Shown here in pieces: positions 54,413 to 57,659 of a stretch of DNA of 57,659 bases. A model generated the notes under the pieces. That model did not search any database. It saw only the letters and a list, made by a program, of their open reading frames with translations, and was not told the DNA's origin. The stretch lies in NCBI GenBank assembly GCA_947626895.1, contig CANQTY010000001.1, positions 68,477-126,135 on the forward strand, written 5' to 3'. The position numbers were made by a program, and so were the translations under genes. This DNA is from an uncultured Bacilli bacterium. GTDB taxonomy: Bacteria > Bacillota_I > Bacilli_A > RFN20 > CAG-449. How positions within the stretch are numbered: the stretch's first letter is position 1; the number at the start of each line of letters is the position of its first letter.

Positions 54413-55231
54413 ATGGTTAAAATTGTCTTATTACTCATTACTTTCGCGATATCAATATTTGAATGTTTTATTACCCCAGTAAATGAAATCTATTTTCAAA
54501 TATTGCTCTTTTTAGCCTATAGTATTGCTAATTTATTATTGATTATCATTCTCTTTTTTATCATTTCCTTTATCATTGGTTTACCTATCAATACTAAAAA
54601 AGAGAATCATCACTATAATAAGTTTTATCGTCATGTTTTAGTTTTAGCAACAAGAATATGTCTATCCTTATTTAGTGTGAAAGTCACCAAAAAAGTATTA
54701 GAAAAAATTCCTCAAGATACAAACTTTTTGCTTACCTTTAATCATCGATCAAATTTAGATTCGATGATTATCGATGTAATTTTAAAAGATATCCCCTTAG
54801 TATTTATAGCTAAAAAATCACTATTTAAAATTCCTTTCTTTGGAAAAATGCTCCATGCAATTGGCTATATTAAATTAGATCGAAGCCATCTTCGCCAAGA
54901 ATATATCGCCATTTGTGATGGTATTGATTTATTAAATAGTAACGAGTGTTCCATTGGTATATCTCCTGAAGGAACTAGAAACTTTACTGAAGAAAAACTT
55001 CTTCCTTTTAAAGCAGGTTGTTTCCGTTTAGCAACCAAGAGTAAAAAGCCAATTGTTGTTACTATATTAAAAAATACAAAAGAAATTAAAAAACATCTAT
55101 TAATCAAAAGACACAAGGTTTCTTTTGAGGTTTTAGATGTTTTATATTTTGAAGATTATAAAGATTTAAATAATTATGAAATTGCTGACAAAGTTCAAGA
55201 AATTATGCTCAAATCTTTAAATGAAGATTAA
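54413..55231 (+). CDS. plsC: 1-acyl-sn-glycerol-3-phosphate acyltransferase
   Basis: NHRSNLD, FIAKK, PEGTR, FKAG. Confidence 0.92.
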   Translation: MVKIVLLLITFAISIFECFITPVNEIYFQILLFLAYSIANLLLIIILFFIISFIIGLPINTKKENHHYNKFYRHVLVLATRICLSLFSVKVTKKVLEKIPQDTNFLLTFNHRSNLDSMIIDVILKDIPLVFIAKKSLFKIPFFGKMLHAIGYIKLDRSHLRQEYIAICDGIDLLNSNECSIGISPEGTRNFTEEKLLPFKAGCFRLATKSKKPIVVTILKNTKEIKKHLLIKRHKVSFEVLDVLYFEDYKDLNNYEIADKVQEIMLKSLNED

Positions 55232-56250
55232 ATTTTCTTTCTTGGAATACCATCTACAATTTCCCAACTATCCCTATAATAAGTAGGGATTTTTATATTG
55301 TTATATGCTTCATTCCAGTTCATATCATATCCTTTTGTATCCTCTTCTTTCCTATCTACATATATAGTAATGTCTTTTAAGTCATAAAAAGCATAATTTT
55401 CTATATAGTCTACTTTTGAAGGAATGATAATCCATTTTAAAGAAAAACATGAGGCAAAAGCAAAATCATGAATGATTTCTATTTCACTAGGAAGCATAAT
55501 CTTTTCTAAAGAAGAACAATCTCCAAGTAATGTTGATGGAATTGATTTTAAATTCTTTGGTAATGTAATCTTTTTTAATTTACTACAATGATCAAAAACA
55601 AGTTGACCTAAAGATGTATCATCATTTAAAAAGGTAACTTCTTTTAATGAAGAACAATTTTTAAATGCCCCGTAAGCTACTTCATTAATACTTTTAGGAG
55701 TACTTATTTTTGTAAGACTACTACAATTTAAGAAAGCATATGAAGCTATTTTACTTACAGGATATTTTTTATTTTCAACTTCAATAAAACTAGGAATTTT
55801 AAAATCTTTTTCTTTTCCTAAATATAAAGTTAAAATTGCTTCTTGATCTTGATAAACATAATAGGCATCATCTTGAATCCATAATTTTTGATTGTCATTC
55901 CTTAAATAATAAAATCCTATCGAGGCATTGGTCCAATACTCATTCCATTCCGCTCGAAAATAATCATATTGATCATCAATATAGACATGAAGATGCTCAT
56001 CTAAATCAAGAAAGATTGCCCAATGTTCCATATATTGATATCCATGAGGAATCATAAGAGCTTTTAAAGAAGGATGAATAAATGCATTTGATTTAATACC
56101 TAAAATAGGATAAGTAATCCCTTCGATTTCAATGGATATAGGTAAAGATAAAACTAAAGCATTACCGATATATTTTTCAATCATTGCACCTTTTTCATCA
56201 TATAGATAAACTAAGCCATTTTTATCTTCATATCTTCTTTTTTCATCCAT
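55228..56250 (-). CDS. BspA-type leucine-rich repeat (LRR_5) protein
   Basis: Repeated AFxxCxxLxxIxLP units; ATG 56250 behind GAGGTG; no signal peptide. Confidence 0.88.
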   Translation of the reverse strand: MDEKRRYEDKNGLVYLYDEKGAMIEKYIGNALVLSLPISIEIEGITYPILGIKSNAFIHPSLKALMIPHGYQYMEHWAIFLDLDEHLHVYIDDQYDYFRAEWNEYWTNASIGFYYLRNDNQKLWIQDDAYYVYQDQEAILTLYLGKEKDFKIPSFIEVENKKYPVSKIASYAFLNCSSLTKISTPKSINEVAYGAFKNCSSLKEVTFLNDDTSLGQLVFDHCSKLKKITLPKNLKSIPSTLLGDCSSLEKIMLPSEIEIIHDFAFASCFSLKWIIIPSKVDYIENYAFYDLKDITIYVDRKEEDTKGYDMNWNEAYNNIKIPTYYRDSWEIVDGIPRKKI

Positions 56251-56388
56251 GTAGCTCACCTCAAAAAATCGTCTAAATATATTTTAATCAATATCCATCT
56301 TTATTTATATATTCTTATTTATCTTTTTGCATTTTAAGTTGTAATCTACTCCACTTTAGTCATGGATTGCGACTATATTGATGTTCTT

Positions 56389-56601
56389 CTATTCGTCTTT
56401 AGGAGTTTTTAACCATTTTTCCTTCGTTTTTAAATAATGCTGATAAAACGGAGAATCTTTGGTTAAGATGCCTGCTACCATTTTCCCCACGGATTCAGTA
56501 TCGTATTCTGCAATAGGTAAACCACGTTTCATAAGTACTTCATCTAGAGGGCTTATCCAAGTACGTGCCTTAGGTGTCTCAGCTTTTTTCTTTTCTGTCA
56601 T
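56389..56601 (-). CDS. Hypothetical 70-aa protein, array copy A
   Basis: ATG 56601 behind AAGGAG; paralogue of the next two ORFs. Confidence 0.75.
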   Translation of the reverse strand: MTEKKKAETPKARTWISPLDEVLMKRGLPIAEYDTESVGKMVAGILTKDSPFYQHYLKTKEKWLKTPKDE

Positions 56602-56711
56602 ATTTAAAATCTCCTTATTCATTTTTATTTGTATATTCTTATTTGTCTTTTTGCATTTTCAATAGTAGCCTTCTCCATTTTAGTCATGAATACGACTATA
56701 TTGATGTTCTT

Positions 56712-56924
56712 CTATTCGTCTTTAGGATTTTTTAACAATTCCTCCTTCGTTTTCAAATAATGCTGATAAAATGGTGAATCTTTAGTTAAGATACCCGCTA
56801 CTATTGTTCCAGGCTTTCTTATCCCATATGTCGAGATAGGTAAGCCCAGCCTCATAAGTGCTTCGTCTAGTTGACTTATCCAAGTACGTGCCTTAGGTGT
56901 TTCAGTTTTTTTCTTTTTAGCCAT
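56712..56924 (-). CDS. Hypothetical 70-aa protein, array copy B
   Basis: ATG 56924 behind AAGGAG. Confidence 0.75.
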   Translation of the reverse strand: MAKKKKTETPKARTWISQLDEALMRLGLPISTYGIRKPGTIVAGILTKDSPFYQHYLKTKEELLKNPKDE

Positions 56925-57034
56925 ATTTAAAATCTCCTTATTCATTTTTATTTGTATATTCTTATTTGTCTTTTTGCATTTTCAATAGTAGTCTTCTCCA
57001 TTTTAGTCATGAATACGACTATATTGATGTTCTT

Positions 57035-57247
57035 CTATTCGTCTTTAGGATTTTTTAACAATTCCTCCTTCGTTTTCAAATAATGCTGATAACATGGAGA
57101 ATCTTTGGTTAATACGCCCGCTACCATTTTCCCCACGGATTCCGTGTCGTATTTCGAGAGAGGCAAGCCAAGACTCATTAGTGCTTCGTCTAGTTGACTT
57201 ATCCATGTACGTATACTAGATGTCTCAGTATTTTTCTTTTTTTCCAT
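57035..57247 (-). CDS. Hypothetical 70-aa protein, array copy C
   Basis: ATG 57247 behind AAGGAG. Confidence 0.75.
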   Translation of the reverse strand: MEKKKNTETSSIRTWISQLDEALMSLGLPLSKYDTESVGKMVAGVLTKDSPCYQHYLKTKEELLKNPKDE

Positions 57248-57339
57248 ATTTAAAAAATCTCCTTATGTTTTGATGAGGCATTATTACGCCTTTTCTTCAT
57301 CAAAATAGAAATACTGAGGGGGATATTTCTTACACTTAT

Positions 57340-57369
57340 AGTATAAATTGAAAGTTTTCATTTTTGCAA
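57340..57369 (-). promoter_or_regulatory. Sigma-A promoter driving the small-ORF array
   Basis: TTGCAA, 18 nt, TATACT. Confidence 0.55.
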
Positions 57370-57479
57370 GAAAAATTTTTATTTCATTATTATAAAAAAA
57401 GTTTTTGATGCTCACCCAAAAAATCGCACCATTTTTATTTTCAAAAAATTTTTTACACGCATTTTTACACGCATCAAAT

Positions 57480-57500
57480 AAAAAAAGCCTATTTCTAGGC
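57480..57500 (-). terminator. Terminator downstream of the tRNA-His sequence
   Basis: GCCTAG-AAA-TAGGC hairpin followed by T7. Confidence 0.6.
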
Positions 57501-57514
57501 GATATCAACTAAGC

Positions 57515-57584
57515 TGGGGCGATTGATCAGAATCGAACTGACGCGTGTCTGGTTCACAGCCAGATGTGTTAACCACTTCACCAC
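57515..57584 (-). tRNA. tRNA-His(GTG), 5'-truncated (positions 1-6 replaced)
   Basis: D arm, anticodon arm TCTGG-CTGTGAA-CCAGA, T arm and CAATCGC-C-CCA end are intact; the 5' strand reads AAACGGG instead of the complementary GCGATTG. Confidence 0.85.
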
Positions 57585-57659
57585 CCGTTTTTAGGATTTA
57601 ACACCATAAAATTTAGGATTTAGAAATATTTTCAGTAAAGTTTACTTATAAAATAAGTA
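57585..57659. mobile_element. Possible end of a mobile element abutting the tRNA-His junction
   Basis: TTTAGGATTTA direct repeats at 57590 and 57612 (22-bp period) beside the break point; no recombinase gene within the window. Confidence 0.4.

Follow-up and report, generated by a model that had tools for sequence, protein, structure and literature searches.

Concerted evolution is the process by which tandem bacterial duplicates are homogenized through unequal crossing-over and gene conversion. Antigenic-variation cassettes, such as Borrelia vls/vsp and Neisseria pilS, combine one expression site with silent cassettes that are promoterless or truncated, and they encode surface proteins. Poly-immunity loci are composed of co-oriented tandem paralogues with no intervening toxins. 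These loci vary between strains, and their intergenic distances are described as 'typically small' (Zhang et al. 2012, PMC3482391).

The locus described here is a tandem array of three genes, A, B and C, in an uncultured Bacilli bacterium. The window, meaning the whole stretch of DNA analysed (57,659 nucleotides), comprises the last 57.7 kb of contig C1 from a genome of 1.52 Mb in 102 contigs, 91.6% complete. Among described arrangements, the homogeneous poly-immunity locus comes closest to it (PMC3482391). Like such loci, the array is chromosomal, consists of co-oriented tandem paralogues of one small family and has no toxin between them. Partial contigs of sequencing runs X6 and X7 suggest that its content may also differ between strains. 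The differences are several. The array family matches no described immunity family available through Pfam. The array has three copies only, with conserved 110-bp spacers instead of short gaps, no recombinase is adjacent to it in the annotated part, and a sister species carries dispersed single copies. In the readable contexts, which are the window and the sister genome G001, no family member is toxin-linked, and the array therefore falls short of poly-immunity membership.

The two other paradigms also match in part. As in antigenic-variation cassettes, gene conversion appears to move short variable blocks between repeats on a conserved scaffold. Unlike those cassettes, all three copies have an ATG, a ribosome-binding site and an intact frame, and by sequence reading their products have no signal peptide and no hydrophobic or membrane segment. 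The unit-length repeats are as expected under concerted evolution, as is the homogenization of B and C after alignment column 174 beside diverged tracts. Concerted evolution is a process, however, not a function, and it leaves the discrete core classes of the array unexplained.

Layout of the array and its genes

Tandem Repeats Finder delimits the array with a period of 323 bp, 3.0 copies and a score of 1401 (85% matches, 1% indels). Self-blast of the array shifted by one or two units gives 83.6-85.7% identity, and single units are 88.4% (B-C) and 82.8% (A-B) identical by blast. The coding strand is the minus strand, which the earlier sequence-only reading of this DNA had left unstated. In minus-strand order each unit consists of the ribosome-binding site AAGGAGA, an ATG 8-10 nt later, 70 sense codons, TAG and a spacer; 110 bp separate each stop from the ATG that follows. 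The earlier description of three 323-bp units, each made of a ribosome-binding site, an ORF and about 110 bp of noncoding DNA, is borne out by these data. So is the claim that all frames are intact: three 70-codon frames are present, with ATG, ribosome-binding site and stop. The positions are:

56292-57266, minus strand: tandem array, from Tandem Repeats Finder
57258-57264, minus strand: ribosome-binding site AAGGAGA of copy C, read from the sequence
57035-57247, minus strand: copy C, 70 aa plus stop, first in transcription order
56933-56939, minus strand: ribosome-binding site of copy B, read from the sequence
56712-56924, minus strand: copy B, 70 aa plus stop, second in transcription order
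56610-56616, minus strand: ribosome-binding site of copy A, read from the sequence
56389-56601, minus strand: copy A, 70 aa plus stop, last in transcription order

The ORF listing offers an alternative 77-aa form of A and B, whose upstream ATG overlaps the ribosome-binding site. Copy C has the 70-aa form only, so 70 aa is the consistent reading for all copies. The shared motifs listed in the earlier reading are all present in the protein alignment: the core is DTESVGKM in A and C versus GIRKPGTI in B, SQLDEAL and EELLKNP are common to B and C, and ETPKARTW is common to A and B. That reading had also noted that the noncoding segments of B and C are almost identical while their ORF centres differ. 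Their spacers indeed differ by one mismatch beside cores of GIRKPGTI and DTESVGKM; the exact stretches that the two units share are 100 bp and 70 bp long, with the single mismatch between them.

Comparison of the copies with one another and with their relatives shows the array genes to be real protein-coding genes. Whole-gene pN/pS values (Nei-Gojobori counts) are 0.148/0.489 for A-B, 0.140/0.363 for A-C and 0.144/0.321 for B-C; the ratio of 0.30-0.45 across copy pairs indicates purifying selection. In the conserved parts, residues 14-24 and 42-70, dN/dS is at most 0.25, and at most 0.2 for most pairs. The sister genome G001, of the same genus, carries two relatives with 41-46% protein identity (E 8.5e-12 and 2.3e-11). 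The DNA similarity of this pair to each other extends from about 12 bp before the ATG to near codon 55, and the flanks are unrelated. Because this similarity covers the coding part only, the reading frame is the conserved element. Antisense frames of 43 aa occur in units B and C, and unit A has a stop that closes them.

The spacers carry a predicted RNA hairpin and promoter-like sites, in addition to one such site upstream of the array:

56982-57027, minus strand: spacer hairpin between C and B, immediately following the stop codon of C (RNA fold -14.2 kcal/mol, z -3.37)
56659-56704, minus strand: twin of this hairpin, between B and A
56958-56985, minus strand: promoter-like TTGAAA-16-AAGAAT before copy B (consensus scan 9/12)
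56635-56662, minus strand: promoter-like TTGAAA-16-AAGAAT before copy A, twin of the site before B
57340-57369, minus strand: promoter-like TTGCAA-18-TATACT upstream of copy C (9/12, consensus match only)

One of 200 shuffled sequences folds as well as the spacer hairpin, and the sequences are too few for covariation. It is not a classical terminator, since no U-run follows it, and Rfam has no match within the array. In the spacer after A, which has no copy behind it, CTTAAA replaces TTGAAA, and hairpin and promoter-like site are both degraded. The promoter scan of the region returned 15 sites versus 14.5 expected from shuffles. The spacer promoters are accordingly consensus matches only, a count no better than shuffles, and their role as promoters is only suggestive.

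Mosaic copies and a variable core

Variable columns of the aligned units were classed by the copy that is the odd one out. Across the 69 variable sites scored, the labels were then shuffled 10000 times. One stretch of 30 columns contains as many as 15 B-only sites, which 0/10000 shuffles match (p<1e-4). A B-C break falls between columns 174 and 190, with a maximum chi-square of 19.4 and again 0/10000 shuffles. The odd-one-out counts are A 17, B 21 and C 14 up to column 174, and A 16, B 1 and C 0 beyond it (p<1e-4). B and C thus show 35 scored differences up to this column and 1 afterwards, whereas A differs throughout. From one end of the unit to the other, copy A is an outgroup to B and C, and its 35 A-only-type sites are evenly spread. 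Most of the 22 B-only sites lie in columns 114-142, within the core, and C-only sites are found mostly in N-terminal codons.

Two further family members, P0005 and P0006, come from another assembly (longest contig 3044 bases for each) and extend the comparison. Five alleles of the array type are known, and they fall into classes in three segments. (i) The N-terminal classes are PKAR (A, B) and SS (C, P0005). (ii) The core classes are DTESVGKM (A, C, P0005), GIRKPGTI (B) and a shorter B-like form (P0006). (iii) The C-terminal classes are EKWL (A, P0005) and EELL (B, C, P0006). All four combinations of N-terminal and C-terminal class are found among A, B, C and P0005. Four combinations of multi-nucleotide states require recombination. 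The sequence-only reading had proposed recombination or gene conversion among the copies and had named a recombination test as the check. The label shuffles supply this test, both statistics standing at 0/10000. Segmental recombination or gene conversion among the copies is supported by these sequence comparisons: the sharp B-C breakpoint, the cluster of B-only sites and the four class combinations.

The core behaves as a discrete unit. Copies A and C differ at 50/322 columns overall, whereas their nine-codon core has 2 synonymous and 0 non-synonymous differences, and DTESVGKM is unchanged in three otherwise diverged genes (A, C, P0005). The core of B contains a K/N-P-G turn and is similar to the G001 type. 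Core classes this discrete are easier to reconcile with a functional segment than with a loop that has simply lost constraint. A dN/dS analysis by segment (the earlier reading had suggested a site-wise one) confirmed purifying selection in the conserved parts and did not find positive selection: no segment has significant dN>dS, and in the core dN/dS is <1 with synonymous sites near saturation. The N-terminal contrast between A and C comprises 10 non-synonymous and 0 synonymous differences, for which our own arithmetic gives a chance probability of about 0.12.

The structure prediction proposed earlier yielded models, at low confidence. AlphaFold2 models were built with a seven-sequence alignment. 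The model of copy B (pLDDT 59) has helices at residues 18-25 and 51-65; that of the G001 type (pLDDT 60) has a helix at 16-24, strands at 29-32 and 39-42, and a helix at 49-57. These models tentatively suggest a scaffold of helix, beta-hairpin and helix, in which the variable core would form the first strand and the turn of the hairpin, between conserved helices. With a pI of 6.6-9.7 and GRAVY of -0.70 to -0.99, the products are predicted to be soluble and not uniformly basic.

Resemblances to known folds and families were pursued and rejected. When the pLDDT-60 model was searched for its fold against 48,161 chains, 10 of them reached a Z of at least 2 and the highest value was 2.8, which is too weak; a likeness to MADS-box proteins (two entries, Z 2.0-2.3) is likewise too weak to use. 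Sequence reading had suggested an excisionase/MerR-like HTH_17 domain (PF12728). The Pfam scan gave no HTH_17 match at E up to 10, comparison by hhalign with the HTH_17 proteins of five relatives gave a probability of 0.8%, and an HTH_17 search of the genome itself, with 24 candidates scored, gave 0 matches at E<=1e-5. A suspected resemblance to ribosomal protein S21 (PF01165) reached an hhalign probability of 4.3% over 15 columns; the genome's own S21 gene sits elsewhere on C1.

Distribution of the family and its chromosomal slot

The family has a narrow range. A search of 5.8 billion proteins returned 6 family proteins among 7 candidates. Three are A, B and C themselves, P0003 is copy C extended by reading past its stop, and P0005 and P0006 are the members from another assembly. 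A profile of 7 members, run against 1.84 billion representatives, gave 8 matches at E<=0.001, of which 2 (P0006, P0007) are real. The other six are proteins of 719-3189 aa, matched in 4-8 stretches each at E 1.3e-6 to 9.8e-4, and they were taken as repeat-inflated chance. Four of these six, P0008, P0009, P0011 and P0013, are repetitive surface-type proteins by sequence reading, with 19-32 residues matched. This profile search, which had no length limit, found no fused form of the family among the 1.84 billion representatives. Among the genomes of 60 relatives, convincing matches occur in G001 only, which is one of the three other genomes of the genus; the rest, with E values from 0.0019 upwards, lie mostly inside long ORFs. 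The genome collection holds two good loci, in one record. Two further matches there, L020 and L021, cover 30 and 22 residues. The single locus in the metagenome collection (L017, 32% identity) is a chance stretch in a 623-aa ORF on a high-GC contig. Searches of 50,697 phage records, 72,556 plasmid records and the viral contig collection turned up no relatives. The search for further copies advised by the sequence-only reading thus returned P0005, P0006 and the two single genes of G001, and two clusters among the 1.84 billion representatives.

The earlier reading had recognized no family, and the same conclusion emerges from wider comparison, with no usable match in Pfam, PHROGs, NCBIfam, PADLOC, the PDB profile search or the ESM Atlas. 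Pfam, PHROGs, NCBIfam and PADLOC gave only sub-threshold noise on A, B and C. PADLOC accepted no match for the three copies (best E 0.027). Pfam, run on all 7 members, returned no family, and the best E over the family scans was 0.024. Three matches of the PDB sequence profile (E 1.1-1.6, 10-21 residues) were discarded; the two alignments inspected cover 10 residues. A literature search on the peptide motifs of the family found no papers; an unnamed relative might be among the immunity families and loci in Additional File 1 of PMC3482391. Among papers on tandem small paralogues with gene conversion in bacteria, titles and abstract openings revealed none on the 70-aa family. On the collections searched, the 70-aa family is an orphan restricted to one lineage, a single genus of uncultured gut bacteria. 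The sequencing runs that hold the array stretch are labelled rabbit gut or gut metagenome and belong to three studies; the listed runs include no RNA datasets.

The array lies at the end of a run of housekeeping genes. The window genes before it are UvrC, MutS2, an RNase HII-family gene, an RluD-like gene, LspA, IleRS, a DAG-kinase-like gene and an acyltransferase. The immediate surroundings comprise:

55228-56259, minus strand: BspA-type leucine-rich-repeat (LRR) protein, 343 aa, directly downstream of copy A (Pfam LRR_5, E 2.2e-33)
55270-55290, strand unassigned: terminator-like hairpin after the LRR gene, from a terminator scan
57515-57584, minus strand: tRNA-His, 3' 70 nt with encoded CCA (Rfam 42.6 bits, model positions 7-64)
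57339-57584, strand unassigned: 246 bp that also form the start of contig C12 from this genome (blastn 100%)

No terminator-like site was found between copy A and the LRR gene, and no signal peptide is evident on the LRR protein from sequence reading. The tRNA-His on C1 lacks its 5' acceptor strand, and ARAGORN makes no call. On contig C12 the tRNA-His is complete, and DegV and RNase J come after it. In G001 the order is DAG kinase, acyltransferase, a Sel1-repeat gene, tRNA-His, DegV and RNase J. The overlap of 246 bp is therefore probably a true join of C1 to tRNA-His, DegV and RNase J on C12, and the truncated tRNA is most simply read as a contig-end effect, because C12 carries the whole tRNA with syntenic DegV and RNase J. 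By synteny, the array occupies a chromosomal slot downstream of tRNA-His whose content varies between sister species: a Sel1-repeat gene in G001 versus the LRR gene and the array in the window genome. The two G001 copies are single and sit at housekeeping loci, one 27 bp after pgi and the other between transporter genes; G001-type genes are near-invariant across three cluster members.

Public contigs of other runs give partial views of the array in related strains. An X6 contig carries the upstream flank of C immediately beside a B-like copy that has the same 3-nt deletion as P0006. In a contig of X7, the sequence behind a B-like copy matches the A-type spacer. These contigs, each a partial array only, place the B-like copy at the first and the last position, respectively. 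In X5, 196 bases of a 1775-base contig align to copy A with 24 differences, and the sequence beyond them is unlike it. Runs X5-X7 leave parts of the array uncovered, from which no conclusion is drawn.

Explanations for the array

The sequences demonstrate the array, the coding status of its genes, their mosaic and their narrow distribution, and several models may account for them. The model proposed here involves the following steps. (i) A lineage-restricted small-protein gene would have been tripled by unequal crossing-over on the 323-bp unit, in a strain-variable slot between the acyltransferase/LRR gene pair and tRNA-His. (ii) The co-oriented copies would probably be co-transcribed with the LRR gene, and possibly also transcribed from spacer promoters. 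(iii) Three short segments carried by a conserved scaffold, namely the N-terminal tail (residues 2-12), the core (25-41) and the C-terminal turn (62-66), would be re-assorted among the array copies and across strains through segmental gene conversion and unequal recombination. (iv) The hairpin may be a partner-contact surface, so that the array would give the cell several binding specificities at once. (v) The array would then act like a homogeneous poly-immunity locus, encoding small cytoplasmic neutralizers of variable incoming proteins. The evolutionary mechanism, unequal crossing-over with segmental recombination, is very probable from the repeat structure. An immunity-like function, argued by analogy, is rather unlikely: the proteins match no immunity, antitoxin or defence family in Pfam, PHROGs, NCBIfam or PADLOC, no LXG or WXG100 family matched in the 91.6%-complete genome, and the single, near-invariant copies of G001 are less suggestive of an arms-race gene than of a housekeeping accessory. 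The genome encodes an RHS-repeat protein. The whole explanation, from tripling through segment re-assortment to an immunity-like hairpin function, is offered tentatively, at somewhat less than even confidence. Its most specific form is doubtful; this is an undescribed 'hairpin-display' family in which a short specificity-setting hairpin and the terminal segments would be shuffled by gene conversion among copies and strains, yielding in gut Bacilli with reduced genomes a compact poly-immunity-like repertoire of cytoplasmic neutralizers, with no kinship to known immunity families.

The evidence for array order and copy number is a short-read MAG assembly of about 4x depth. The three copies might be an artefact, the metagenome assembler having chained together alleles from co-existing strains whose locus has one or two copies. 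The array ends 393 bp from the contig end in a 102-contig MAG, other strains appear to carry different copy sets, and no public k=31 contig spans a whole unit, the breaks falling inside the exact 100-bp and 70-bp stretches shared by B and C. The depth in X1, the best-holding run (0.86 of sampled words), is only about 3-6x. Eight listed k=31 contigs of this run nevertheless tile the stretch with no differences. Within X1, possibly the source sample and so not independent, the A- and B-specific contigs run upstream into B/C-type spacer and only the C-specific contig runs into unique flank; A and B must each lie behind another unit, because their contigs end in B/C-type spacer rather than unique flank. 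Depths of 3.2 (A), 4.0 (B) and 3.9 (C) resemble those of the single-copy flanks (4.9 and 3.9), and the copies do not sum to the flanks. The independent assembly, moreover, has two members of its own, P0005 and P0006. An artefact is improbable on these grounds, and three copies in one genome are favoured, at low depth and with X1 possibly the source sample. A still smaller probability attaches to an antitoxin or anti-defence cassette array on a mobile element integrated at tRNA-His. Such an element is brought to mind by the adjoining tRNA-His that lacks its 5' end in C1 and by the difference in slot content between sister genomes, but the contig ends explain the truncation, C12 having the whole tRNA. 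No integrase, recombinase, phage or plasmid gene occurs among the 14 ORFs of at least 100 aa scanned from 37.5 kb to the array. Unlike a mobile-element anti-defence gene, the array has housekeeping flanks in a slot syntenic with G001, and the family has no phage, plasmid or viral-contig relatives. Unlike a type II antitoxin, no copy has a cognate toxin beside it: the search for a toxin or partner gene next to the array found only further copies, the LRR_5 protein, the acyltransferase, the DAG-kinase-like gene and IleRS; the G001 copies stand alone, no toxin gene occurs in the readable contexts of the family (window and G001), and PADLOC reached no better than its E of 0.027. With no partner gene, mobile context or phage or plasmid relative, the antitoxin and anti-defence readings are unlikely. 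The parallel that the earlier reading drew with immunity, antitoxin or anti-defence cassette arrays thus finds no direct support.

The main rival combines dosage amplification with neutral concerted evolution: the family would be a small accessory, regulatory or nucleic-acid-binding factor whose dose the tandem copies increase, the mosaic an ordinary side effect of conversion between repeats, and the core a tolerant loop without a part in specificity. The occurrence of G001 copies singly and near-invariantly at housekeeping loci agrees with this, as do the non-mobile context, the strong ribosome-binding site on each copy, dN/dS <1 in most segments and a lysine-rich N-terminal tail with a pI of up to 9.7. 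The pI of the copies ranges down to 6.6, however, so that a basic nucleic-acid-binding surface is not conserved, and no DNA- or RNA-binding family matches, HTH_17 and S21 having failed in hhalign. A tolerant loop is also at odds with the discrete core classes, above all with the A and C cores, where 2 synonymous changes stand against 50/322 differing columns overall. Dosage amplification is a possible reading, held with fairly low confidence.

What is new is the narrow 70-aa family; the arrangement itself resembles known tandem-paralogue loci. If dosage and neutral homogenization were the true explanation, the array would be an ordinary lineage-specific tandem duplication. If instead the hairpin sets partner specificity, as proposed here, a repertoire would be generated by gene conversion from a 323-bp unit and 70 residues, a system that is very small and experimentally tractable, and a new family would be added to the conflict-system inventory of uncultured gut bacteria with reduced genomes. 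Either way, this is a true orphan family, with two clusters among 1.84 billion representatives and clear signs of a genuine gene, and it is useful for small-protein annotation.

Relatives of the array protein

The family is represented twice in the sister genome G001, which belongs to the same genus, at L015:7870-8046 and L016:7816-8034. These two members appear near-identical in DNA alignment and share 84% identity as proteins. The likeness of their DNA is confined to a segment running from approximately 12 bp before the ATG to approximately codon 55. The sequences on either side are unrelated, with one gene placed after pgi and the other flanked by two transporter genes. This arrangement would be consistent either with gene conversion that keeps the dispersed copies alike or with copying of the bare coding segment.

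Another relative, P0003, is a 99-aa protein encoded on a 918-base contig of another assembly, and its first 70 residues are identical to copy C of the array. Beyond residue 70 the protein continues in-frame through the spacer, with Q replacing the TAG stop of the window. This extension suggests either that the stop codon is altered in another strain or that the gene was called under a different code.

Minor features of the array

Two hydrophobic frames antisense to the array genes and a hairpin in the leader of copy C are located as follows.

56629-56760, plus strand: 43-aa hydrophobic frame, unit B, spanning the spacer and the gene 3' end
56952-57083, plus strand: 43-aa hydrophobic frame, unit C, in the same position
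57275-57292, plus strand: hairpin, terminator-like in the scan, immediately before the ribosome-binding site of copy C

The antisense frames are probably not genes, because a stop codon interrupts the equivalent frame of unit A.

Genomic surroundings and contig end

In the window genome, the slot between an acyltransferase gene and tRNA-His holds the array and a gene for a cytoplasmic-looking BspA-type LRR protein (55228-56259, minus strand). The same slot in G001 holds a gene for a 204-aa Sel1-repeat protein (L026:6477-7091, plus strand). The slot gene differs between the genomes, yet both products are protein–protein-interaction repeat proteins. Elsewhere in the window genome, an 1827-aa open frame with an RHS-repeat match (contig C4, 41274-41372, locus L051; 27.5 bits, above the cut-off) is a candidate polymorphic toxin; no LXG or WXG100 matches were found in this 1.5-Mb genome.

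The final 321 bp of contig C1 (window 57339-57659) are common to two further contig ends of the same genome, C12:1-330 and C23:1-74. Comparison among the contigs equates C12:77-322 with window 57339-57584, and C23:74-1, reversed, with window 57583-57656. Given this shared end, C1 and C12 probably join here. The tRNA-His gene is complete on C12, and the simplest reading of its truncation in the window is an effect of the contig end or an alternative route through the assembly graph.

A repeated module of approximately 70–100 bp lies at window 57403-57505. It recurs in the genome at these sites.

C65:1937-2007
C33:86-200
C8:1396-1481
C9:11079-11108

The module comprises a terminator hairpin (GCCTAGAAATAGGC followed by a T-run) and TGCGTGTAAAAA in two or three copies. 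It is located immediately downstream of genes for tRNA-His, tRNA-Gly and tRNA-Pro, and also at C33. In X1, the public sequencing run that best covers the stretch, the summed contig depth of the module is approximately eight times that of the flank (41.5 versus 4.9). The module could be a terminator shared by tRNA operons, or it could mark one end of a small repeated element.
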